Positions 1,214 to 52,892 are shown, counted from the stretch's first letter. The stretch: DNA of 64,000 nt from Patescibacteria group bacterium (GCA_041649715.1 JBAZMP010000001.1:309287-373286); one strand, 5' to 3'. Notes: generated by a model from the letters alone, not told the origin. A program made the numbers and translations.

Positions 1214-3586
1214 ATGAATAGAAATGTAGTTGAAGAATATTTAAAAAAACAGAAAATAAAAGTCGTTGAGGAATTTGATTTTGAAAAAAAGAAAGTAAAA
1301 TATTCCGAAAAGATAAGAGGTTGGAAGATTGATAAATTTAGGGGCGATGAGGAAATCGTTAGAGCTTTTGTTCTTGCTAAACTTGTAAACGAATTGGGAT
1401 ATAAACCTGAGAATATTGAATTGGAAAAAGAATATGATATTGGTAGACCAAAGGTAAATAAACCCAGAATTGATATTATAGTTAAAGACGATAAAGACAA
1501 CGTTTTTTTGTATATTGAATTAAAAAGCCCCGCAGATTATGAAAAAGATAAGGATGAAGTAATTGAGAAACAACTTTTTAATCTTGCTTCACAAGAACAG
1601 GGCCAAGGTAAAAAAGTAAAATATCTCGTATTATATACAATTGAAATTGTTGAAACCCAGATAAAAGACAAATGTATTTTGATTGACTATGAAAAATTTA
1701 ATTCATTCAACACGTGGAAAGAAGTACGAAATTACGCAGATGAATTACCCGAAAGATATGAAAAAGCTCAAAAAGAACCATACGTAAAAGGTGGAAAAAA
1801 AGATTTAGAGACAAACTTTTCATATGAACAGCTTGATGGGCTGAGAAAAAATCTACATAATGTACTTTGGGGAGGTGGTGGAACAGATGACAACGATATT
1901 TTTTCGTCATTAGTAAATATTATTTTGGCAAAAATTCAAGATGAAAGCGAAAAAGAGGAAGGCGGAGAATATGACTTCCAAATTCGTTCATTTAAAGATG
2001 GCGAAAGTTTTGAAACCAACCAGCAACTTTTTATAAAAATAAATGATCTTTATATAAGAGCGTTAAAACAAAGATTAAATATTATTGACGAAAATGAGTT
2101 AAAAGAAAGCTTTGTAATTGATAAAAAGAAATTTTCTCTTGCAAAATTAAAATACACTATAATGCAAATCGAGAGATATTCATTTGTGGACGGGAAAAAC
2201 AGCTTTGACGGTAAAGATATTCTAGGAGACTTTTTCGAGGGTATTATTAGAGAAGGATTTAAACAAACAAAAGGTCAATTTTTTACGCATGTTAATATTG
2301 TAAGGTTTTTGCTTTGGGGGTTGCAACTTGATAAGCTAGCAATTGATAAAGTGAATAAAGATTTAGAAATTCCCTACCTAATAGATCCAAGCGCCGGTAG
2401 CGGCACTTTCCTGATTGAATATATGAAGTTTATTACCGAAAATCTCAAGAGAAGATTTAAAAGTAGACTAGCAAAAAAAAGAGACGTAGAGGACAAATTT
2501 AATCAATGGTTTATCCCTGACCACCGAGAAAATAAATGGGCACAACATTATATTTATGGCATAGAAACTAATTTTAATCTAGGTACTGCTACTAAAGTAA
2601 ATATGATTTTGCATGGGGATGGCTCAACTAATGTTTTTGTTAAAGACGGACTATTACCTTTTAATTATTACGACAAAGAAACCGCGCCGAACTATTTGAA
2701 GCAAAGCGAACAAGACAAAAACTACTTTAATAAAGAAGTAAATAAGCAATTTGACGTGATTATAACTAATCCTCCATTTAGTGTCACTTTGGATAATGAA
2801 ACAAAAGAGCATCTTACTAAAGAGTTTATTTTTGGAAGCACAAAAAACTCGGAAAATTTGTTTGTAGAAAGATGGTATCAATTATTAAAACCTAACGGAA
2901 GATTTGGGGTAGTTTTGCCAGAAAGTGTTTTTGATACAACAGAAAATAAATACATTCGTCTATTTATTTACAAATATTTTAAAATTAAAGCAGTAGTTTC
3001 TTTACCACAACTTACTTTTCAGCCGTTTACAAGTACTAAGACTAGTCTTTTATTCGCTCAAAAGAAAACTGATAAGGAAATTGAAGAATGGAATAAACTT
3101 TGGAGTAAATATAGTAGTGAATGGAGTGCTCTAAAAAATAAGTGTAAAAATTTATTATTGGTCTATTTAGAAAACAAAGACAAAAAGAAATTATCTTCAA
3201 TCAAAGATTTGTTAGAATCGGAGAAAAAAGAGATATTATTAAGAATGCTTAAAGATAATATTGAAGAAGATGATAAAAAATTATTAGCAAAAGAGCTGAT
3301 ATATAAATACAAAAGTGAATTAGTTGAACTTTGTGAATATGATAACGATACTAAAGATGTTTTTGGTTTTGTCAATACCTGGTGGGTTTTTAGTGAGGTA
3401 GCAAAAATACTCAATTACAAAATTTTTATGGCAGAAGTAGAAAATATTGGATATAAAAGGACTAAAAGAGCTGAAAAACCTATGCCAAACGAACTTTATC
3501 GCGTAAATGATAAAGGAGAAGTTTTAGTTGATGATGGCAGGATAGAAACTGCTTTAGATTATTTAAGAAAAGTGATATGGGATTAA
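1214..3586 (+). CDS. Restriction-modification bifunctional subunit: N-terminal HSDR_N-type PD-(D/E)xK nuclease domain fused to a gamma-class N6-adenine DNA methyltransferase (BcgI-A-like Type IIB, or a Type I M-like subunit)
   Basis: 790 aa. The N-terminal region has PRIDIIVKDDKDNVFLYIELKSP, a D..ExK nuclease motif. Methyltransferase motif I is LIDPSAGSGTFLIEY and motif IV is ITNPPFSV. The gene overlaps the downstream S gene by 10 nt and is extremely AT-rich. Confidence 0.75.
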   Translation: MNRNVVEEYLKKQKIKVVEEFDFEKKKVKYSEKIRGWKIDKFRGDEEIVRAFVLAKLVNELGYKPENIELEKEYDIGRPKVNKPRIDIIVKDDKDNVFLYIELKSPADYEKDKDEVIEKQLFNLASQEQGQGKKVKYLVLYTIEIVETQIKDKCILIDYEKFNSFNTWKEVRNYADELPERYEKAQKEPYVKGGKKDLETNFSYEQLDGLRKNLHNVLWGGGGTDDNDIFSSLVNIILAKIQDESEKEEGGEYDFQIRSFKDGESFETNQQLFIKINDLYIRALKQRLNIIDENELKESFVIDKKKFSLAKLKYTIMQIERYSFVDGKNSFDGKDILGDFFEGIIREGFKQTKGQFFTHVNIVRFLLWGLQLDKLAIDKVNKDLEIPYLIDPSAGSGTFLIEYMKFITENLKRRFKSRLAKKRDVEDKFNQWFIPDHRENKWAQHYIYGIETNFNLGTATKVNMILHGDGSTNVFVKDGLLPFNYYDKETAPNYLKQSEQDKNYFNKEVNKQFDVIITNPPFSVTLDNETKEHLTKEFIFGSTKNSENLFVERWYQLLKPNGRFGVVLPESVFDTTENKYIRLFIYKYFKIKAVVSLPQLTFQPFTSTKTSLLFAQKKTDKEIEEWNKLWSKYSSEWSALKNKCKNLLLVYLENKDKKKLSSIKDLLESEKKEILLRMLKDNIEEDDKKLLAKELIYKYKSELVELCEYDNDTKDVFGFVNTWWVFSEVAKILNYKIFMAEVENIGYKRTKRAEKPMPNELYRVNDKGEVLVDDGRIETALDYLRKVIWD

Positions 3587-6871: not shown

Positions 6872-7293
6872 GATTTTTTTCCTTTGTTAGACTATACTTA
6901 GGAGTCGACCTTTAATTTACTCCCAGGACAAAAACCAAATAATTTAGTTCCTATCAGGGGAGAATTAAAAGCGACTTAATCTAGATATAGAATAAGCGCC
7001 GGATTTTACCTCGCCAGCTTTTTCAAAGAGTTTTTAACAGCTACATACTAACGAATAATAATGTCTCTGTCAAGTAGGTTTATTATTTTAGCTAAAAAGC
7101 TTATAATAAATCCATGTCCAAATACTACAACTCTAAGCGCACCAAACATCTTTTTGACCCTACCTTTTTTAACGCTATTTGTTATAAGCACTAAATCCGA
7201 AATACGAAACTCTAAACAAATTCTAATTTCTCAAATCCGAAATTCGAAACTGAGGGTTTTAAAAGCCAAAGACGATAACGAAAAACAAGCGGT

Positions 7294-7405
7294 AGAGGGG
7301 GTCCGGGGGAAAAACTGAAAGCCAAACGGCCATACGGAACAACCTTACCCACCTCTCGCGGTTTTTTTCCCCCGGAACTTTTGCTACTTTTAGTTATAAA
7401 AGTAG
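7294..7405. repeat. Structured repeat family A, copy 1 (GGGGTCCGGGGG ... CCCCCGGAAC long hairpin plus a small 3' hairpin)
   Basis: GGGGGTCCGGGGGAAAAACTG...CGGTTTTTTTCCCCCGGAAC, then CTACTTTTAGTTATAAAAGTAG. Related copies lie at 10409..10530, 12596..12755 and 12866..12955. Confidence 0.7.
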
Positions 7406-7409
7406 AAAT

Positions 7410-7525
7410 ATATCAGTACAGACAAAAAAGTAAGTAGGGGATAATCAAAAAAGACTGTCTACCCTTCGAGGCTCAAGCCTGTCCTGAGTGGCATCGAAGG
7501 ACACCTCAGAGTGACAGTTTTATTT
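7410..7525. repeat. Structured repeat family B, copy 1 (AGTAGGGGATAA..CTGTCTACCCTTCGAGGCT-[variable]-CACCTCAGAGTGACAGTTTTA)
   Basis: The conserved 5' and 3' arms can pair (CTGTCTACCC with GGGTGACAG) around a variable core. Copies lie at 10141..10215, 10560..10640, 10700..10795 and 12757..12790. Confidence 0.65.
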
Positions 7526-7695
7526 TGATTCTTTTTCACCAAAAAAACAAACAATCAACCAAGACATTTTTTATCCGCCCGCTAGCCTTAGCGTGTTTTT
7601 TGTATGAAGAAGTTTATCCACCTTGACTTAGAAAGGTATATATATTAGTGTTAAGTTAGTACTAATTCAGTAAATTAGCACAATCTACTAATTTT

Positions 7696-10059: not shown

Positions 10060-10830
10060 GCAGATAATATTATTGTCATACTGAGGAGCCATGAGATCCT
10101 GAGTCGCATCGAAGGACGAATGGCGTCTCGAAGTATGACCGTTTAGACACATAAAAGCCTGTCTATCCTTCGAGGCTCGCATTGCTCGCACCTCAGGGTG
10201 ACAGTTTTAGTTTTATTTGAAATTCGGTGCATCGGATTTAATCGTCAGGCGGCGAAGCGTTGACGAGCCGCCACTAAGAAAAAGTTAGCAGTAATTTAAG
10301 CTTTCAGCAGGCTGGGGTCTCTGCCTACGGCAGACAGGTGGGGGCTTCATCGCCTTAAATATTTTACAGCGTTTTTTGCTATTAAAAATAACGAAAATTT
10401 AATGGGCGAGGGGGTCCGGGGGAAAAACTGAAAGCGAATGGGCTACGCGGTAAAACCAACCCCCTGTGCTCGCGGTTTTTTTCCCCCGGGGCTTTTGGTT
10501 CTTTTGGCCTCAAAAGAACAAGACAATCAGCCTTGCCCCCTAAAATAAAAATTTTCTAAAGGTAAAAACTCACCCTTCGAGGCTCCCATTCGACGCGGCT
10601 CATGCTCGCACCTCAGGGTGACAGTTTTATTATTTTGGTTTTTGGAGTCTGCCCTGAGTGGCAACGAAGGGGTTACAAAAGTTGAAATACTTCGGCACAG
10701 ACTAAAGATTGAGTAAGGGATAAACAGAAGAAACCGTCTACCCTTCGAGGCTTAGGCGTTGCCTTCGCACCTCAGGGTGACAATTTTAGTTTGCATTTAT
10801 CAACTTTATAAGATTAAAATAAAAGACCCT
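10060..10830. repeat. Non-coding island densely packed with structured repeat modules (families A and B, a TTAGCAG..GCTTTCAGCA module and an AGCCTTGCCCCC..AAAATAAAA module)
   Basis: Family A copy at 10409..10530. Family B arms at 10158..10215, 10571..10640 and 10735..10795. A CTGCCCTGAGTGGCAACGAAGGGGTTACAAAAGTTGAAA module at 10644..10690. No credible ORF. Confidence 0.7.
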
Positions 10831-11637: not shown

Positions 11638-12531
11638 ATGCAAAAAAAATCCTGGCTTAGCCTCATTTATTTTCTGGTTTTTGGCTTATTAATAATTTTT
11701 ACTTTCTTATTCAAAAGCCGTTCTCTGCTGTATGTAGTAATTCCCATTTTTTTTGGTTTTATCGTGGTTTTGAGTTTGATAAATGTTGGAGGCAAGATGT
11801 TTTCTTTTTCCAAAGGTTTGATGACCATGAGTAAAACCGGGCCGGTTTTTACCTCTAAGGTCTGGTCTTGGCGGGAAGGGGAAACGATTGATTTCGCCGA
11901 TATTTTTCCGGGGTTGAAGGACGTGACCTCATTTTTCAGTGAAATGCCACTGCCGAAAATAAAACCGGAGAGAGTGGCGATTGGAGAAAAAGAGGGGGTG
12001 AATTATAATATTTACCGGCTTAATTTCACGAATATCGTAAAAGTTCCGGCCAGCCGCAAACCGGGCTTCCGGCCGCTGATAATCCACGGGGTTAAAGCGC
12101 CGGGAATGAGCGGGGGCTTGAATTCAAGTGTGAGCCAGAGCTTTAATATTTTGCAGGCCAGATTGACTTTTCCTGGATCTTTCCCCGGCCGTTTGATTAT
12201 CCAAAGAGTTGCCGGGCCGACCTTGGGCCGTGATATTGATCTGGAAAGCGTGGAATTTAACAAAAAAGTTCAGGTCTATACCAATCAGGCCAAAATCGCT
12301 TACCAGATTTTATCCCCGGATTTTATGGACTGGTATTTGAAACTGCCTGATCAGCCGGTTATCGCTTTTGACCAACAGATATGTTATTACACCCTGATCG
12401 GATTCAGTAATAAGGGTGAGGAAGAGATTACCGCCGATATTGAACAATTGATTGACCGCGTCCTGCATTCAGGGGCTTTAACCTTATCCCAAATCCCAAA
12501 TCCTAAATCCAAAACAAATCCCAATATCTAA
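11638..12531 (+). CDS. Hypothetical membrane protein (two N-terminal TM helices plus a globular domain)
   Basis: 297 aa. TM helices are LSLIYFLVFGLLIIFTFLF and VVIPIFFGFIVVLSLINV. The last roughly 12 codons (PNPKSKTNPNI) are encoded by an AAATCC-type repeat. Confidence 0.55.
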   Translation: MQKKSWLSLIYFLVFGLLIIFTFLFKSRSLLYVVIPIFFGFIVVLSLINVGGKMFSFSKGLMTMSKTGPVFTSKVWSWREGETIDFADIFPGLKDVTSFFSEMPLPKIKPERVAIGEKEGVNYNIYRLNFTNIVKVPASRKPGFRPLIIHGVKAPGMSGGLNSSVSQSFNILQARLTFPGSFPGRLIIQRVAGPTLGRDIDLESVEFNKKVQVYTNQAKIAYQILSPDFMDWYLKLPDQPVIAFDQQICYYTLIGFSNKGEEEITADIEQLIDRVLHSGALTLSQIPNPKSKTNPNI

Positions 12532-13175
12532 ATCTGAAATTCGAAACACGGCGGCGTCGTCTCATTTTATGGTGAACAAAAGTAATCAGAAAGCGTGGGG
12601 GCTCCGGGGGTTTTCCTCAGTCCGCAGGGGTTTTAGCGTCTATTTACGCAAATCTTGAACGAATTAAAACCCCCGGGGCTCTTTGGTACTTTCTGGCCCC
12701 AGAAAGTACAAGCAAACAGCCTTGCCCCCAAAAATAAAATTTTCAAAAAAGTAAAACTAACCCTTCGACGCGGCTCAGGGTGACAAGAGGAGAAAGGCGG
12801 CGAAACCAGGGGCGAGCCGCCTAGTGAATAAAAATTAGCAGATACTTTATGCTTTCAGCAAAACAGGGGTCCGGGGGGAATGCTCGACTTTGCGGCTTTT
12901 AGCATTTATATGAGTTTTAAGGGGGCAATCATTCCCCCCGGAACTTTTGCTACTGGAGCCTGCCCTGAGTGGCACCGAAGGGGTTACAAAAGTTGAAAGA
13001 TAGCATCTAAAAAAACAGCTAAAGTAAAACAAAATAATAAACCAAAAAATTACTCTCGCCCGTCTTACGCATAGGTCGATCTTTTTGGCTAATTTAAGCA
13101 GAAATAACAAAAAGACGTTAATTTTGACTAAATCGGCTAAAATCGCTATAATAAAGTTAAATACAGGAGGGGAAA
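12532..13175. repeat. Non-coding island of structured repeat modules (family A copies 3 and 4, a family B fragment, and others)
   Basis: GGGGGCTCCGGGGGTTTTCC...AAAACCCCCGGGGCTC at 12596..12680. GGGGTCCGGGGGGAATG...CATTCCCCCCGGAAC at 12866..12955. CTGCCCTGAGTGGCACCGAAGGGGTTACAAAAGTTGAAA at 12958..13000. Confidence 0.7.
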
Positions 13176-14499: not shown

Positions 14500-14672
14500 T
14501 TTAAATCCTAAATTCTAAATCCGAAAATCTAAACAAATCTTAAATTCTAAATTCCAAATTCAAAACCGGTTTGGAACATTGGAAAATTAGGGCTTCGAAT
14601 TTGTTTCGGATTTAGGATTTCGCGCTTCGAATTTATCTGAATTTTGGTGCTTGTAATTTGGAATTTTGAAGA
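14500..14672. repeat. Long AT-rich palindromic hairpin of the AAATYC/GAATTT family (probable bidirectional terminator)
   Basis: AAATCCTAAATTCTAAATCCGAAAATCT...TTTCGGATTTAGGATTT. The two arms are near-perfect reverse complements across more than 60 nt. Confidence 0.65.
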
Positions 14673-28029: not shown

Positions 28030-28674
28030 ATGATTATGTTCGAAACAACACCAAAATCATCCGACCCGCTTGATATGTTCGAGGTGACACCAAAATCGCC
28101 CGCCCCGCCTAATCTGCCGGCCGAAAAAAATACGGCGGTCGGCTCGCGACTTCCCGAGGAGCTATTGGATGAAGTGATGGAAGGCGGCTCCGGCAAGGGC
28201 AAGAAGATAATCCTGGTTATTTTAGGCGTTATCATCCTGGCGGGGCTGGTTTTTGGCGGTTATATTTTATACAACAAATATTTCGGCGCCCCTTCTGAAA
28301 ATGAAAATATCAGTAATATCAGTAATCAGGCCGGAAACAAGAATATCACGATCCCACCGGCCGATATCCAGGCCCTGGCTCTCTGCTATTTAAAAGAACA
28401 TGCTGACGCCTCTTTCTATTTTCCCGCCGGACTGATAAGGGGAGATTACGAAAAGGCGGCGGCTAACGCGGCCGGCTGCGCAAGTTTCAGCGCCGATGAA
28501 TTGAGCGCCATCTTTTATTATTTTACCCTTGATCCGGATCAGGACGGCCTGAATTACGTCGTGGAGCAAAAATACGGCACGGACAACAGCAAGAAGGACA
28601 CGGACGGGGATTCCTACGGCGATCTTGTCGAGATAAACGGCGGCTATAATCCTTTAGGGCCGGGAAAATTATAA
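28030..28674 (+). CDS. Membrane-anchored protein of unknown function
   Basis: 214 aa. A Pro-rich N-terminus and one TM helix (IILVILGVIILAGLVFGGYILY) are followed by an extracytoplasmic domain ending in DTDGDSYGDLVEINGGYNP. Confidence 0.55.
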   Translation: MIMFETTPKSSDPLDMFEVTPKSPAPPNLPAEKNTAVGSRLPEELLDEVMEGGSGKGKKIILVILGVIILAGLVFGGYILYNKYFGAPSENENISNISNQAGNKNITIPPADIQALALCYLKEHADASFYFPAGLIRGDYEKAAANAAGCASFSADELSAIFYYFTLDPDQDGLNYVVEQKYGTDNSKKDTDGDSYGDLVEINGGYNPLGPGKL

Positions 28675-34724: not shown

Positions 34725-34862
34725 TGAAATAAATTCCAATATCCAAATTCAAAACACGCCCCAGAGGCGTTTTTTTGTATTAAAAAAATGGATCGTTAGA
34801 GTTTTGGATTTCGAATTTGGAATTTGGGTATTGTTTGGAACTTGGAATTTGTGATTTGGTAT
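34725..34862. repeat. AAATYC-family palindromic hairpin with a nested canonical terminator (ACGCCCCAGAGGCGTTTTTTT)
   Basis: ATTCCAATATCCAAATTCAAAAC ... GTTTTGGATTTCGAATTTGGAATTTGG. The inner GC hairpin plus T-tract lies at 34752..34776. Confidence 0.6.
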
Positions 34863-37671: not shown

Positions 37672-37845
37672 CAAACTAAATTCTAAATCCGAAATCCTAA
37701 ATTCTAAACAAATCATAATATCTAAATCACAAATTCGAAACCCCATTAGAAATTCTATTTTTAAATAGGAAACCGGTTTGGGACATTGGAAAATTATTGC
37801 TTCGAATTTGTTTAGGATTTAGAAATTGAGATTTGGAATTTTATC
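37672..37845. repeat. AAATYC-family long palindromic hairpin
   Basis: AAATTCTAAATCCGAAATCCTAAATTCTAAACAAATC ... GATTTGTTTAGGATTTAGAAATT. The arms are complementary. Confidence 0.65.
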
Positions 37846-42372: not shown

Positions 42373-42434
42373 ATCGAGATTCGAGATTGGTGATTCGTGA
42401 TTCGTATCCGAATCCCGGATCTCGAATCACGAAC
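42373..42434. repeat. Palindromic hairpin of the GATTCG/CGAATC family
   Basis: CGAGATTCGAGATTGGTGATTCGTGATTCG ... CGAATCACGAAC. Confidence 0.55.
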
Positions 42435-42465
42435 ATATAATAATTAACAGAAGGAGAACAAAACT

Positions 42466-43342: not shown

Positions 43343-43435
43343 CGTGATTCGAAACTCGAGACTCGTGATTCAACCGAATCCCAAATCACGAATTACCAAT
43401 CACAAATCAATCACCAATCTTGAATCCCGAAATCA
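43343..43435. repeat. Hairpin-rich low-complexity repeat (CGAATC/AAATCA units)
   Basis: CGTGATTCGAAACTCGAGACTCGTGATTCAACCGAATCCCAAATCACGAATTACCAATCACAAATCAATCACC. Confidence 0.5.
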
Positions 43436-43483
43436 AAATAATTAACAAATTAACTAACGAATATTAAATAAAGGAAAAACAAT

Positions 43484-45394
43484 ATGTCAAAAATTCTAGG
43501 TATCGATTTAGGCACAACCAATTCCGCCATGGCGATTATTGAAGGCGGCGAGCCGAAAGTCTTGGAAAACTCCGAAGGCAACCGGACCACGCCGTCGGTC
43601 GTCGCCATTTCAAAAAAAGGCGAACGGATGGTCGGCCAGGTCGCCAAACGTCAGGCCGTGATTAACCCCACCAACACCCTTTATTCCCTGAAACGCTTGA
43701 TCGGCCGCCATTTTTCCGATGAAGAAGTGCAGAGAGATATAAAGGTTTTGCCTTTCAAAATCAAGCAGTCAGGCGAAGGCGTTAAAATAGAAATGGCGGG
43801 CAAGGATTACACCCCGCAGGAGATCTCCGCCATGGTTTTGGCGAAATTGAAAGCGGACGCAGAGAATAAATTAGGCGAGAAGATCACCGAAGCGGTCATT
43901 ACCGTGCCGGCTTATTTCGACGATTCGCAAAGACAGGCGACCAAAGACGCCGGCCGGATCGCCGGTTTTGAAGTCAAGAGAATCATCAATGAACCGACGG
44001 CCGCCGCCCTGGCCTATGGCTTTAATAAAAAGAAAGACGAGAAGATCGCGGTCTACGATCTGGGGGGCGGGACTTACGATATTTCCATTTTGGAAGTGTC
44101 GCAGGATACCGTGGAAGTGAAATCGACCAACGGCGACACCCATCTGGGCGGTGATGACTTCGACCAGAGGATCATCCAGTGGCTTGTTTCCGAGTTCAAA
44201 AAAGACCAAGGCATTGATTTATCCAATGATATCATGGCTTTGCAACGCCTGAAAGAAGCGGCGGAAAAAGCCAAGCATGAGCTTTCCACTGTGACCGAAA
44301 CGGAAATTAACCAGCCGTTCATCACCACCGACGCTTCAGGGCCCAAACATTTGCAGCTGAAAATGACCCGGGCCAAGCTGGAAAGTCTGGTCGGCGATCT
44401 GGTGGAAGCGACTAAGGCGCCCATGCAGAAAGCTTTGGATGACGCCGGTTTGAAAACTTCGGACATTAATGAAGTGATTTTAGTCGGCGGCATGACTCGT
44501 ATGCCCATGGTTCAAGCGACTGTCGAAAAATTCTTCGGCAAAAAGCCGAATATGACCGTTAACCCGGATGAAGTGGTGGCGGTCGGCGCCGCGGTGCAAG
44601 CCGGTGTGCTGCAAGGTGATGTCAAAGACATCTTGCTGCTTGATGTGACGCCTTTAACCTTAGGTTTGGAAACTTTGGGTAGCGTCATGACGCCATTAAT
44701 CAATCGTAATACAACCATTCCCACGGCCAAGACGCAGGTCTTTTCCACGGCCGCGGATAATCAGACCAGTGTGGAAATTCATGTTTTGCAGGGAGAAAGA
44801 CCGATGGCCGGAGACAACAAGACTTTAGGCAGATTCATGTTGTCTGGAATTCCGCCGGCGCCCCGCGGCATGCCGCAGATTGAAGTGACTTTTGACATTG
44901 ATGCTAACGGCATCTTGAATGTCAAAGCCAAAGACAAAGCCACGGGCAAGGAACAGGGGATCACTATTACCGCTTCCACGACATTGTCCAAAGACGAAGT
45001 GGAAAAGATGAAAAAAGAAGCGGAAATCCACGCGGCCGAAGACTTGAAGAAAAAAGAACTGGTGGATTTGCAAAACCAGGCCGAATCCCTAATCTTCATG
45101 TCCGAAAAAGCTTTGAAAGACGCGGGAGCCAAAGTGCCCGACAAAGATAAGAAAGAAATTGAAAGCAAGATTGAAGCCGTCAAAAAAGTCCAGAAATCCG
45201 AAAACAAAGATGAGATCAAGAAAGCCGTTGACGAATTGAACCAGGCCATTCAAAAGATCGGCCAGGCCATGTATGGTCAGCAAGGACCCCAGGCGGGAGC
45301 GCCAGGCGGTAAGGCCGGCCCGCAACCCGGTTCCCAAGAGCCAAAAGACGATAAAGGCCCGGTAGATGCGCAGTATGAAGAGGTAAAGAAATAA
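43484..45394 (+). CDS. dnaK: Chaperone DnaK (Hsp70)
   Basis: 636 aa. [18 protein letters not shown], the EKAK substrate-binding domain and an acidic C-terminal tail. Confidence 0.95.
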
Positions 45395-45743: not shown

Positions 45744-46037
45744 ATGAACGGAGAATCACAACAAAAAGTTAACATCAAGGCCAATGATGAGACCATGATA
45801 GGCGCTTACGCCAATAACATGATGGTGGCGCATTCCAAAGAGGAATTTGTTATGGATTTTATTCATCTTTTTCCGCCCCAAGGGTTGCTCGTTTCCCGAG
45901 TTATTACATCTCCTGGTCACATGAAACGGATTATCTCTGCCTTACAGGACAATTTAAAGAAGTACGAAGAAAAATTCGGAAAGGTTGAGCAGGCCGAAGC
46001 GCCTAAACAAGAAGGAGTAGGGTTTGAAACAAGGTAA
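45744..46037 (+). CDS. DUF3467 family protein, copy 1
   Basis: 97 aa. YANNMMVAHSKEEFVMDFIHLFPPQGLLVSRVITSPGHMKR fits the DUF3467 pattern. It is about 85 percent identical to 48453..48743. Confidence 0.65.
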   Translation: MNGESQQKVNIKANDETMIGAYANNMMVAHSKEEFVMDFIHLFPPQGLLVSRVITSPGHMKRIISALQDNLKKYEEKFGKVEQAEAPKQEGVGFETR

Positions 46038-46258
46038 ATCTAATGTTTACCCCCGGCGAAATCGCGGACGGGCTACGCCTAGCCGTCATTCCGAACTTGG
46101 TTCGGAATCTCCCACTAGAATACGCGTAATTAATAACGGAGATCCTGAAACGAGTTCAGGATGACGGGTGGGGGAATAGGCGGAAAAATTTATTTGAAAA
46201 ATAAAAGAAGCCCAAACTCCGTTGAGTCGGGCTTCACCGTAAGTTCGAAATGATCTTT

Positions 46259-46651
46259 CTACTTCCTAATCCGAGTGTCGCTACTATAAGATTGAATACC
46301 GTAGATGGGATCGCGGAGATTCGTTTTCAGTTCGATTCTGCAATCCCAGCCGGGGAAACTCTTACGGTGGTGCGAAATGACGGCTTTTGCCTCTTGAAAG
46401 GCTCTGCGCCAGAATGGCCGCATGATTTTCTTGTCAGCTTCCGGCGTGGGTTTCCAGTTGTACTCGTGCTCAGGGCTGGTTATTTTTGCCGGCACCAGGT
46501 CATTTTTTTTCAGACCGGGGAAATCCACCTTGATCTTGCCGTAGACACTAATCGCGCCCACTCTCACTAGGCGATCATCAGCCAAATGAGGCGGGGTTAA
46601 GGTGTAAGCGACTTCTATTTCAACTTTCTGCGCACTAACCGTAATGTCCAT
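46259..46651 (-). CDS. Hypothetical protein
   Basis: 130-aa ORF on the minus strand, convergent with DUF3467 copy 1. No motif recognised. Confidence 0.45.
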   Translation of the reverse strand: MDITVSAQKVEIEVAYTLTPPHLADDRLVRVGAISVYGKIKVDFPGLKKNDLVPAKITSPEHEYNWKPTPEADKKIMRPFWRRAFQEAKAVISHHRKSFPGWDCRIELKTNLRDPIYGIQSYSSDTRIRK

Positions 46652-46749
46652 AGTCAGACCCCCAAAGGTTAAGTTTTCACGTTTTCTCCAATTCAGTTTT
46701 TCAACTTAACATATTAATATTATACTGTCAAGCCTAAAAAGCCGGCCAA

Positions 46750-47178
46750 ATGGCGGAAAAATATATGAAACACGTCAAAGCAATTATCATAGAGAACAAT
46801 AAAATTCTTTTGCTGAAAAGAAACAGAGAAGGCCGGATTTATTGGGTTTTTCCCGGCGGACAGGTGGAAAGTGGAGAGACGGATGAGCAGGCTTTGAAGA
46901 GGGAAGTCAAAGAAGAGGTTGGAGTAGACGTTTCCGTCGGGAAGCTGATTTTTCAGACGAAATATAAATTGCCAAAAAAAGAGACTAAAGAAGATGAATA
47001 TTTTTATCTTTGCCGCTACATCGGCGGTGAAATCGGTACAGGCCAGGGGCCGGAATATCAGCCCAATTCCGGCTATGTCGGCACTTATGAACCGCAGTGG
47101 GTGGCAATAAAAGACTTAAGGAAAATGAAAGTATTACCGGAAGAAGTGAAAAATCTGGTGCCGGAAAAATTTCTTTGA
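46750..47178 (+). CDS. NUDIX hydrolase
   Basis: 142 aa. The Nudix box is GGQVESGETDEQALKREVKEEVGV. Confidence 0.85.
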   Translation: MAEKYMKHVKAIIIENNKILLLKRNREGRIYWVFPGGQVESGETDEQALKREVKEEVGVDVSVGKLIFQTKYKLPKKETKEDEYFYLCRYIGGEIGTGQGPEYQPNSGYVGTYEPQWVAIKDLRKMKVLPEEVKNLVPEKFL

Positions 47179-47188
47179 AAATAAAAAA

Positions 47189-47208
47189 GGGCTGTCGAAT
47201 GACAGCCC
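47189..47208. terminator. Bidirectional terminator hairpin
   Basis: GGGCTGTCGAATGACAGCCC lies between convergent genes. Confidence 0.55.
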
Positions 47209-47250
47209 GTGGTTTCTCAAAATTTCGAGGTAAAATGTACTCTGCTATTC

Positions 47251-47466
47251 CTAGCTCTCGAGTTTAGCGCGGAGATTCAGTAGTTTCCCGCGGACTCCCA
47301 GAAGTTTTTCTTCTTTCTTTTTAACCTCGTCATAATGATCAGCGAGAGAAACGGGGAGATGCCGAGCTCTGTTCAACCCATCCTCGGCCCCTGCGAGCTC
47401 TTTTTGGGCTCGGTCTTGCTCAAGCATGATGTCAATCAAGGCTTTGACCGCTTCCATGGCCTTCAT
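47251..47466 (-). CDS. Hypothetical small coiled-coil protein
   Basis: 71 aa. The Shine-Dalgarno sequence GAGGAGG sits 6 nt upstream on the minus strand. Confidence 0.5.
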   Translation of the reverse strand: MKAMEAVKALIDIMLEQDRAQKELAGAEDGLNRARHLPVSLADHYDEVKKKEEKLLGVRGKLLNLRAKLES

Positions 47467-47653
47467 TCTAAGCCTCCTCTCAAGGTTTATTGTTTTTGTC
47501 CCGTCTGCTAGTTATAAAAGGACAGATGATTAGTCTATATCTTATTAGAGGAAATTATCTTTGTCAAGTTTATAAATGAGGCGGAAAAATTTCTTTGAAA
47601 AATAAAAAGGAAGCGACGTGGGTCGCTTCCGAAAATGTGCTCTTGTTGAATTT

Positions 47654-47920
47654 TCAGCTCATGATCCGGTACTTGGAACCGTCCGGCCGAACGATGTAAA
47701 TGCGGTCCTGGATACCCATTGAAGATTGTCCGCCGGAGGTGGCGGACGGTTGGGTTTTCTCCAACCCGGCGAGCTGCTTTTTAGCGGCGGCAATGGCCTT
47801 TTTCTCCGTCGGGTAGGAACCCGGAATCGGATAATCCTCATTTGAGAAAGTATCGTACCCCTCCAGATGCCATCTTCCTGCTTCCGACTTTTTCTTCGCC
47901 GCAGGACGTTTCTTTTCCAC
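47654..47920 (-). CDS. Hypothetical small basic protein
   Basis: 88 aa. A GTG start sits 7 nt after AAAGGAGGT, and the terminator hairpin GGAAGCGACGTGGGTCGCTTCC lies downstream. Confidence 0.5.
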   Translation of the reverse strand: MEKKRPAAKKKSEAGRWHLEGYDTFSNEDYPIPGSYPTEKKAIAAAKKQLAGLEKTQPSATSGGQSSMGIQDRIYIVRPDGSKYRIMS

Positions 47921-48030
47921 TAAGGACCTCCTTTGTTTAACGAGAAAAGTACCAGACGGATTGATTAAAACAAGTTAGCATTAATGTTTTTTATTGTCAA
48001 GCCCTCTTTTTCCGGCGCGGATGGGCGAAT

Positions 48031-48060
48031 AAAAAAAGAGCGGCTTTAAAAAAGCCGCTC
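48031..48060 (-). terminator. Intrinsic terminator for the 48080..48337 gene
   Basis: GAGCGGCTTTaaaaaAAGCCGCTC, with a T-tract on the minus strand. Confidence 0.6.
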
Positions 48061-48079
48061 GGCAATGAACAATATTGTT

Positions 48080-48337
48080 TTAATGAAAGATACGGCACTC
48101 TCCTTGGTTGAAATCATCAAAGGGTTTGTCGCTGAAGTCTATTATCCCTCTGGCACTCCATTTTACGCGGATTGAATCACGTTGTGAAGGATTGGTCAGA
48201 TTGACGATGACGATTCCGCCGGCCTCCTGGTCTAGGCGGCCGATCACCAGATAAACGATAGAGGGTTTTTCCGGGATCTTGACTTCAATCTTCTCGCCAC
48301 CGTTAAGAGCAAAAAATTCCCGGCTGCTTAAGCTCAT
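48080..48337 (-). CDS. Hypothetical small protein
   Basis: 85-aa ORF. GGAGG sits upstream on the minus strand (AAAGGAGGAATCAACC ATG) and a terminator lies downstream. Confidence 0.5.
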   Translation of the reverse strand: MSLSSREFFALNGGEKIEVKIPEKPSIVYLVIGRLDQEAGGIVIVNLTNPSQRDSIRVKWSARGIIDFSDKPFDDFNQGECRIFH

Positions 48338-48452
48338 GGTTGATTCCTCCTTTTAAACATTTTCTCAAAACAACATCCCGATAATTCCAGTATTAGTCCG
48401 GATTCATTATTTTGTCAAGTCATTTATATTAATTAACTAAGTATTTAAACCT

Positions 48453-48743
48453 ATGAACGGACAGCAACAACAAGTAAACATCAAGGCCAGTGACGAGGTC
48501 ATAAAAGGCGTTTACGCCAACAATATGATGGTGGCACATTCAAAGGAGGAATTTGTTATGGATTTCATTCATCTTTTCCCGCCTCAAGGATTATTGGTTT
48601 CTCGCGTCATTACTTCTCCCGGTCACATGAAAAGAATCCTGGCTGCTCTGGCCGATAACCTGAAAAAGTACGAGGAAAAATTCGGCAAGATTGAAACGGC
48701 CGAAGCGCCTAAGCAAGAAGGCATTGGTTTCGCGACCAAATAA
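48453..48743 (+). CDS. DUF3467 family protein, copy 2
   Basis: 96 aa. It is a paralog of 45744..46037. Confidence 0.65.
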   Translation: MNGQQQQVNIKASDEVIKGVYANNMMVAHSKEEFVMDFIHLFPPQGLLVSRVITSPGHMKRILAALADNLKKYEEKFGKIETAEAPKQEGIGFATK

Positions 48744-51758: not shown

Positions 51759-52892
51759 ATGGCTAAGGATTATTACAATCTGCTGGGTGTGGAAAAATCC
51801 GCTTCCGAAGAGGAAATCAAGCGGGCTTTTCGGCGCCTCGCCCACCAGCATCACCCGGACAAGAGCGGCGGTAATGAGGCTAAATTCAAAGAAATCAACG
51901 AGGCTTATCAGGTTTTGGGCAACAAGGAAAAACGGCAGCAGTATGATCAATACGGCACGACCTTTGATGACGCCGCCCGCGGCGGCGCCGGCGGCTGGCA
52001 GGATTTTTCTAGGGGGGCCGGCGGTTTTAATTGGTCGGATTTTTTCCGCCAAGGGCAGGCGGGCGGTACCCAGGAACAGGAGCAGGAATTTGATTTTGGA
52101 AATATCGGCGATATTTTTGGCGATATCTTTGGCTTTAGCGGCGGGAGGCAGACAAGAACCAGAAAAACCAAAGCTCGCGACATTACCGTGAGCCTAAACA
52201 TTGATTTCAAGGAGGCGGTTTTTGGGGCGGAAAAATTAATTGATCTTCATAAATCCGTAGCCTGTCCGCGTTGCGGCGGAACAGGAGCCGAGCCCGGCGC
52301 CAAAGTGGAAACCTGCCCGACCTGCCATGGTGCCGGCCAGGTACAAAGGATCCAAAATAGTTTTTTTGGCCAGATCCGCAGTTATGGCGTCTGCCCGGCC
52401 TGCCACGGACAGGGAAGTGTCATGAGCAAGAAATGCGCGGAGTGTAAAGGCAAGGGAACGATAAAAGATACGAAAAGAATAAAAGTAAAAATTCCCGCCG
52501 GCATTGACTCCGGTCAGACGATCCGGCTGACGGGGGAAGGGGAGGCGGCCGGTTTGGCCGGCCGTCCGGGCGATTTATTTCTTCAGGTTGAAGTAAATCC
52601 GGACTCATACTTTAGGCGGGAAGGGGAGGATATTTACACCGAAAAAGAAATCACGTTTTCCCAAGCCGCTTTAGGAGCGACCGCCGAAATTGAGACCGTG
52701 GATGGACCAGTTAAATTGAAAATTCCCGGCGGCACCCAGTCGGAAAAGTTATTTCGTTTAAAGGATAAAGGGGTGCCGCACTTGCAAGGCCGCGGGAGAG
52801 GGGATCATTACGTCAAGATTATTGTAAAAACGCCAACTCATATAAACCGGCGGGCCAGGGGATTACTAGAGGAGTTATCTGGCGAAGAATAA
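51759..52892 (+). CDS. dnaJ: Chaperone DnaJ
   Basis: 377 aa. J-domain DYYNLLGVEKSASEEEIKRAFRRLAHQHHPDK, a G/F-rich region and four CxxCxGxG zinc-finger repeats. Confidence 0.95.
   Translation: MAKDYYNLLGVEKSASEEEIKRAFRRLAHQHHPDKSGGNEAKFKEINEAYQVLGNKEKRQQYDQYGTTFDDAARGGAGGWQDFSRGAGGFNWSDFFRQGQAGGTQEQEQEFDFGNIGDIFGDIFGFSGGRQTRTRKTKARDITVSLNIDFKEAVFGAEKLIDLHKSVACPRCGGTGAEPGAKVETCPTCHGAGQVQRIQNSFFGQIRSYGVCPACHGQGSVMSKKCAECKGKGTIKDTKRIKVKIPAGIDSGQTIRLTGEGEAAGLAGRPGDLFLQVEVNPDSYFRREGEDIYTEKEITFSQAALGATAEIETVDGPVKLKIPGGTQSEKLFRLKDKGVPHLQGRGRGDHYVKIIVKTPTHINRRARGLLEELSGEE

Follow-up and report, generated by a model that had tools for sequence, protein, structure and literature searches.

How the CPR/Patescibacteria, with their tiny genomes, gain new genes and put them to the test is poorly understood. 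The locus described here raises this question on a small scale: does a short motif, repeated beside GC-rich hairpins, mark the joints at which small genes are exchanged, or does it serve transcription termination, protein binding or DNA uptake instead? The locus lies on a 382-kb metagenomic Patescibacteria contig, from which a 64-kb stretch was analysed (hereafter, the window), and is flanked by hrcA, grpE, hsp20, dnaK, dnaJ and dus. Nearly all genes from 1 to 53 kb of the window are encoded on the plus strand, and the small genes of reverse orientation form an island between dnaK (43484-45394) and dnaJ (51759-52892). Within this island two DUF3467 paralogs (79% nucleotide and 83.5% amino acid identity) bracket the reverse genes that bear the motif (Table 1). 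The related genomes L141, L148 and L151 hold DUF3467 as a single copy.

Motif copies and the anatomy of their junctions

The repeated unit, about 29 bases long, contains CGGAAAAATTT(C/A)TTTGAAAA, which is found at 47162 and at 47582, with a third copy at 46181 (in the 64-kb window). The first two positions had already been reported in the initial annotation and are exact matches to CGGAAAAATTTCTTTGAAAA (47162-47181 and 47582-47601); the 71-aa minus-strand gene that it had placed between them is indeed enclosed by these copies (B and C, Table 1). The third copy (46181-46200, of the same CGGAAAAATTTCTTTGAAAA type with one mismatch) was absent from its list. With at most one mismatch allowed, the window contains three matches, against 0.00 expected from 100 dinucleotide-preserving shuffles, and the repeat is thus not a product of chance. 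All three copies fall inside 1.5 kb of the 64 kb, with none elsewhere in the window. Another assembly, made independently (Logan SRR8542065, L103), agrees with the window at 7653 of 7653 bases, so the arrangement is not an assembly artefact.

Table 1. Features of the motif-bearing part of the island, in order of position (window coordinates).
Feature	Position	Strand	Remarks
DUF3467 paralog 1	45744-46037	+	left border of the island
GC-rich long-hairpin spacer	46036-46177		from DUF3467 paralog 1 to motif copy A; same kind of element inserted into the motif in related genomes
Motif copy A	46178-46206		AGGCGGAAAAATTTATTTGAAAAATAAAA; on the minus strand, T-rich tail 3' of hairpin A
Hairpin A	46207-46235	-	predicted intrinsic terminator of W130; MFE -22.5 kcal/mol, z -2.6
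W130	46259-46651	-	130 aa; without family match
W130 promoter (inferred)	46703-46731	-	TTGACA-17-TAAGTT; direct reading
NUDIX (MutT-like) gene	46750-47178	+	last six codons and stop inside copy B (...VPEKFL*)
Partial motif-like stretch	46751-46767		GGCGGAAAAATATATG; at the nudix start; weak evidence, probably nudix ribosome-binding site and spacer
Motif copy B	47159-47188		TGCCGGAAAAATTTCTTTGAAAATAAAAAA
Hairpin B	47189-47208	-	predicted terminator of W71; z -4.0
W71	47251-47466	-	71 aa; ORFan; GGAGG ribosome-binding site
W71 promoter-like site	47539-47567	-	TTGACA-17-TAAGAT; on the minus strand, 11-12 nt downstream of motif copy C
Motif copy C	47579-47608		AGGCGGAAAAATTTCTTTGAAAAATAAAAA
Hairpin C	47609-47630	-	GGAAGCGAC..GTCGCTTCC family; predicted terminator of W88; z -4.2
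W88	47654-47920	-	88 aa; widespread uncharacterised small-protein family
W88 promoter (inferred)	47972-48000	-	TTGACA-17-TAACTT; direct reading
W85 terminator	48038-48060	-	different tail, without motif
W85	48080-48337	-	85 aa
W85 promoter-like site	48389-48418	-	
DUF3467 paralog 2	48453-48743	+	right border of the motif-bearing part of the island

Each copy is abutted by a different GC hairpin, which folds as a strong stem-loop and is located 18-43 nt beyond the point where a small gene on the minus strand stops (W130, W71 and W88 for A, B and C). On the minus strand every hairpin runs directly into TTTT(T)ATTTTTCAAAGAAATTTTTCCGCC, the reverse-complemented motif, so that the order within a copy is GC hairpin followed by TTTTTATTTTTCAAAGAAATTTTTCCGCC; on the plus strand no T-tract follows hairpins A, B or C. 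Since the hairpins stand past the stops of minus-strand genes and the T-tract exists on the minus strand only, the motif is the tail of three predicted minus-strand intrinsic terminators. The earlier description of a different GC hairpin terminator after each copy is therefore right as to the difference between the hairpins and has to be turned around as to the strand, termination being predicted for the minus and not the plus strand. In a similar manner, copy B does overlap the 3' end of the nudix gene, which the motif had been said to form, but the converging nudix reading frame simply reads into the terminator tail of W71; as two of the three plus-strand reading frames of the motif hold a stop (direct reading), a nudix stop codon inside it is unremarkable.

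The genes on the upstream side of these terminators would each form a transcription unit of their own: W130, W71 and W88 have promoter-like sites of the TTGACA-N17-TAxxxT type and ribosome-binding sites that read GGAGG. At copy C the hairpin, the motif and the promoter-like site of W71 are joined in one compact junction; copies A and B have no promoter in the module and face the 3' ends of converging forward genes (DUF3467 paralog 1 and nudix). None of the small proteins of the window belongs to a Pfam, PHROG, NCBIfam or PADLOC family, and W71 had no homologue besides itself. A phage origin of the window's small genes was rejected, as they had neither a PHROG nor a phage-genome match, and the defence-system models applied to the window yielded only a generic match to nudix.

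Three further candidate explanations or markers were considered. That nudix is a cassette which entered the motif and left a target duplication of 11 bp (at 46752 and 47160) was rejected as a weak case: GGCGGAAAAAT also occurs in three coding regions elsewhere in the window, and at 46752 it occupies the position expected for a ribosome-binding site and spacer. Nudix as the ancestral resident of the slot is not supported, the NUDIX protein of L148 being only 25% identical. As for base composition, the reverse genes (47-54% GC, vs 44% for the window) resemble dnaK and dnaJ, so it is not diagnostic.

Perfect-stem intrinsic terminators are nearly absent from the long plus-strand run of the window and cluster at the minus-strand genes of 47-50 kb and 54-58 kb. 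At gathering score, Rfam recovered only a tRNA in the window, with nothing near threshold in 45.4-48.5 kb; a sub-threshold match to the L20 leader (48026-48111, minus strand; 28.6 bits vs a gathering score of 58.7), which overlaps the W85 terminator, is most likely due to chance.

The dnaK-dnaJ slot in related genomes

Eight further copies were recovered from related genomes (L072, L131/L143 and L144), bringing the alignment to 11 copies in four genomes. Its 22-base core, GGCGGAAAAATTTCTTTGAAAA, is nearly invariant (100% identical in six of the 11 copies, four genomes), while the adjacent hairpins vary and, together with the neighbouring ORFs, drift; the hairpin stems remain complementary across the 11 copies (by eye). 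The ORFs that flank the copies in the related genomes are mostly unrelated. The tie between motif, hairpin and variable small-gene content, as put forward in the initial annotation, is thereby upheld, as related genomes keep the junction beside unrelated ORFs.

In L072, a Patescibacteria MAG whose DnaK is 88% identical to that of the window (83% at the DNA level), entirely different genes follow dnaK. Over approximately 3.2 kb this genome carries four recognisable copies of motif plus hairpin, a degenerate copy with a hairpin and another degenerate copy without one; the copies with a hairpin are each found at the 3' end of a reverse small gene, and the one without lies just upstream of a forward CYTH gene. 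When the islands of the window and L072 were compared all against all, the shared DNA consisted only of the junction modules (83-100% identical) and the dnaK terminator, and no ORF matched at E<=1e-3. The motif is 89-100% identical between genomes in which the dnaK DNA is 83% identical and the other island DNA is unalignable; it is far better conserved than neutral or even coding DNA.

Such conservation bears directly on the reading that the copies are passive relics of a locally duplicated or gene-converted terminator, with termination as their only function and a slot that merely tolerates insertions. This would account for the functional-looking terminator attached to every full copy, for the clustering of the copies within 1.5 kb and for the fact that many of the hairpins belong to one family (GGAAGCGAC..GTCGCTTCC). 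Passive relics, however, should diverge faster than coding DNA, contrary to what the comparison with dnaK revealed, and the best-conserved portion (CAAAGAAATTTTTCCGCC) is the one expected beyond the point of termination; we consider this origin improbable.

The motif contributes the conserved AT-rich part to a composite junction module. The series seen at copy C (hairpin, motif, TCA, TTGACAAAGA, TAAGATA) is recognisable at copy 2 of L072, where it separates unrelated ORFs, and a sigma70-like promoter sequence is present at copy C, at L072 copies 2-4 and at the junctions of L141 (absent at A and B). W88 and its junction were encountered in three neighbourhoods (window, L143 and L144): homologues of this gene are present in L131/L143 (91%) and L144 (83%), with motif and hairpin behind them. 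Its surroundings differ, as L143 also carries a W85 homologue, but has a different gene instead of W71 and a further cassette instead of DUF3467 paralog 2, and in L144 a solitary W88 unit has a forward gene on either side. Between the window and L143, homology stops at 47579, precisely where the motif has its left edge. For the 47.2-47.6 kb segment, which the initial annotation had singled out for comparative genomics, the breakpoints of homology between genomes coincide with the motif.

A break at the motif edge, a conserved core beside a variable hairpin (superficially attC-like) and an array of small ORFs of unknown function are features that a site-specific recombinase site, integron-like or belonging to another dedicated cassette system, would also display. 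Against it, the called genes up to ~10 kb away in both directions have no listed integrase, transposase or recombinase domain (precomputed Pfam; window and L141), the hairpin is not enclosed by an inverse-core/core pair (RYYYAAC...GTTRRRY; direct reading), and the cassettes have their own promoters and are interspersed with forward genes. We hold a recombinase site to be very improbable. Of the recurring insertion or exchange mechanism suggested at the outset, the variable cassettes beside motif and hairpin stand, with no sign of dedicated insertion machinery.

In the more distant L141 (DnaK 83% identical) the same slot is filled by five reverse small genes in three transcription units, with a diverged junction (AAAGTTTTTTGAAAAT..AAAAAG plus a hairpin, adjoining a TTGACA promoter) repeated three times. 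Other relatives have the order dnaK-DUF3467-X-dnaJ, where X is NUDIX or HEPN and the motif is missing, from which it follows that the slot is variable across the clade. The forward gene after dnaK/DUF3467 also differs among genomes (NUDIX in the window, CYTH in L072, an unrelated NUDIX in L148 and HEPN in L151); NUDIX, CYTH and HEPN domains are typical of conflict and stress systems.

In four of the 11 copies a hairpin element interrupts the motif, always at an identical position (TTTGAAAA^AAATAAAAAG; L072, ~3160-3190 and ~2040-2110; L143, ~230-340; L144, ~595-630). L072 copy 4 and L143 copy 2 share the same insert (93-100% identical) with different flanking genes, a pattern reminiscent of a hot spot for insertion or of a junction that was co-transferred. 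The GC-rich element between DUF3467 paralog 1 and copy A (46036-46180) folds at -56 kcal/mol (z -3.9). Similar GC-rich intergenic elements with long hairpins occur at 7275-7530, 10150-10800 and 12945-13000 of the window and at 3746-3810 of L072, one window copy being 91% identical to an element of L072; the elements have no Rfam match and may constitute a MITE-like or structured-RNA family of the clade.

More distant homologues of W88 are situated in other contexts, without the motif. One of them (L152, Logan SRR16971109, 2818-3081; 64% identical, 60% GC) has as neighbours packed, co-directional small genes (STIV_B116-like, AlkB-like 2OG-Fe(II) oxygenase, Thg1 and DUF6166), a run that looks like a phage or mobile element. 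Separately, a reverse small gene in the corresponding island of L141 (12652-12909) matches phrog_8472 (E 2.6e-10) and the precomputed Pfam family Phage_T4_Y07B.

Distribution of the motif and comparison with known systems

A GTDB-wide exact scan (185,579 species-representative genomes) returned 101 loci, all of them single matches in unrelated taxa except for L072, where three exact copies lie together within 8 kb directly after dnaK; the exact search matched no further contig of this MAG. Among the 35 matches of a JGI metagenome scan, one belonged to a related contig (L131) and the rest were due to chance, many of the latter being GAAAAATTTTTTTGAAAA stretches that precede TTGACA promoters of unrelated bacteria. 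The restriction of the motif to the variable dnaK-dnaJ island, with no genome-wide sign of it, rests on the 64-kb window and on the exact search of one related MAG. A frequent, generic terminator leader, which the initial annotation had named as the finding that would speak against its proposal, was rejected on this basis: the other canonical perfect-stem terminators of the window have unrelated tails (terminator scan), and a multi-copy locus was seen in one relative only, at dnaK.

This distribution also bears on the idea that a naturally competent bacterium uses the motif as a signal for DNA uptake and keeps it in terminators, in the manner of Neisseria/Haemophilus. In favour of this idea, its layout (a GC core, then phased A/T tracts by terminators) resembles that of the 29-bp Haemophilus USS. 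Uptake sequences, however, are found roughly once per kilobase throughout a genome, and here there are three copies in 64 kb, all within 1.5 kb, with the exact copies of the related MAG confined to one locus; an uptake function seems extremely improbable.

The near-invariance of the 22-mer invites another explanation, namely that a protein binds GGCGGAAAAATTTCTTTGAAAA, for example as an operator, as a nucleoid-protein site or as a UP-like element, and that the small genes are co-regulated or insulated in this way, gene turnover being unrelated to it. The six fully identical copies amid drifting hairpins and ORFs agree with this, as do the alternating GAAA/TTTC half-sites of the 22-mer (GAAA-AA-TTTC-TTT-GAAA, by direct reading) and the fact that a TTGACA promoter comes after the motif at copy C and at copies 2 and 3 of L072; it may also resemble the A/T-tract pattern of UP elements. 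UP elements are A/T-rich and occupy a fixed place (-40 to -60) upstream of the -35 hexamer, whereas the distance from the motif to TTGACA varies from 0 to ~200 nt, or there is no promoter at all. About half of the copies have no promoter after them and point towards GC-rich elements or towards a converging gene at its 3' end, a hairpin element of 28-110 nt lies between the 22-mer and the terminator in four of the 11 copies, and the motif is not regularly accompanied by any candidate gene for a DNA-binding protein. On balance, a protein site that has nothing to do with gene turnover appears unlikely.

The island bears its closest likeness to arrays known from phages. In T4-type phages, PeSLs (promoter-early stem-loops) unite a sigma70-like promoter with a stem-loop and an AT-rich region, lie beside ORFans in hyperplastic parts of the genome and are proposed to undergo exchange within the AT-rich region (Arbiol et al. 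2010, PMC2839356; Comeau et al. 2014, PMC4122927). Both systems have a composite intergenic unit of terminator stem-loop and AT-rich stretch, joined in some of the island copies by a sigma70-like promoter sequence, both are concentrated in a hypervariable region where they flank small ORFans, and in both the same module is met between unrelated genes of related genomes; moreover, the zone proposed for PeSL exchange (AT-rich) corresponds to the best-conserved part of the island module. The two also differ. The island resides in a cellular Patescibacteria chromosome (hrcA-grpE-dnaK...dnaJ region) and not in a phage; its core is an AT-rich motif of 22-29 nt by the hairpin, accompanied by a promoter in some copies only and at variable distance; there are three copies in the genome window, compared to ~50 per phage; and neither mini-circles nor exchange events were observed at the island.

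The small genes also recall phage morons, since each comes with a promoter-like site and a predicted intrinsic terminator of its own, has a strong ribosome-binding site and is oriented against local transcription, but they lack a prophage context, and the small proteins of the window have no PHROG or phage-genome match. Morons are independent promoter-ORF-terminator units inserted between genes and are not defined by a shared junction motif. Judged by these analogies, the island appears to behave like PeSL or moron arrays, yet it is not a member of that phage family.

Like an integron, the island is an array of small ORFs, most of them unknown, and every ORF has at its end a structured site whose flank is conserved. 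Integron cassettes are promoterless and co-oriented, and attC sites are imperfect palindromes (R''-L''...L'-R') with a GTTRRRY core; the island, in contrast, has no intI within ~10 kb (precomputed Pfam), its units have their own promoters, gene orientation is mixed (forward nudix and CYTH), and the 11 aligned copies show neither flank symmetry nor a GTT core (direct reading). REP/BIME and MITE-like elements are likewise short repeated intergenic sequences with hairpins at gene ends, and true GC-rich hairpin elements do exist in the island system, where they insert into the motif; the motif itself, however, has no terminal inverted repeats, is not dispersed in the window and is tied to one island. 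The literature that was searched contained no description of such arrays in CPR genomes.

Junction modules as possible patches for cassette exchange

We propose, with confidence evenly poised for and against, that the PeSL-like or moron-like junction modules are homology patches for the shuffling of gene cassettes, the mechanism put forward for the PeSLs of T4-type phages; the exchange itself is inferred. Read along the minus strand, a module comprises the terminator hairpin, then TTTTTATTTTT-CAAAGAAATTTTTCCGCC and, in some copies, a TTGACA...TAAGAT promoter. Modules of this build separate self-contained promoter-ORF-terminator units, packed in reverse orientation in the slot between dnaK/DUF3467 and dnaJ of one Patescibacteria clade, and could act as short patches of homology. 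Homologous recombination between them, either within a genome or with DNA imported from relatives, may then delete, duplicate or swap units, and a swapped unit would arrive together with its own terminator and promoter.

Several observations weigh against the homology-patch reading. The patch is ~22-55 bases long, which is marginal for RecA-type recombination; its best-conserved part is the 22-mer, and neither the promoter nor the hairpin; and the W85/W88 junction (48038-48060), located in the same array, is without the motif. Complete identity of the 22-mer across species suggests sequence-specific selection, for which a pure homology patch has no need. No recombination products (motif-bounded indel polymorphism or a circular intermediate) were observed, the two assemblies of the strain being identical and thus uninformative.

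A bolder and more speculative form of the proposal, which we regard as possible but doubtful, makes the locus a cellular counterpart of PeSLs: a hot spot in the heat-shock cluster of ultra-small Patescibacteria, where strictly conserved junctions would let homologous recombination swap self-expressing ORFans within and between genomes (some of these genes being common to phage-like elements) and where the 22-mer is perhaps also bound by a dedicated protein.

If the hot spot does exchange small genes that are ready to be expressed, modular shuffling of the kind known from T4-type phages would also operate in cellular genomes, and the hot spot would point to strain-specific accessory genes (NUDIX, HEPN, CYTH and ORFans). 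If the 22-mer is a protein-binding site instead, it would define a small regulon in organisms with almost no known regulation.

Elsewhere in the window, low-complexity arrays of the AAATCC/GAAATTC type occupy intergenic positions (7185-7259, 12483-12557, 14502-14634, 34730-34755, 37677-37841, 42374-42449 and 43343-43447) and include inverted copies that flank the hsp20 region upstream of dnaK. A tandem duplication of 39 nt (28035-28112, 77% identical), at the start of the ORF at 28030-28674, was the sole repeat in a scan of 27.5-34.5 kb.
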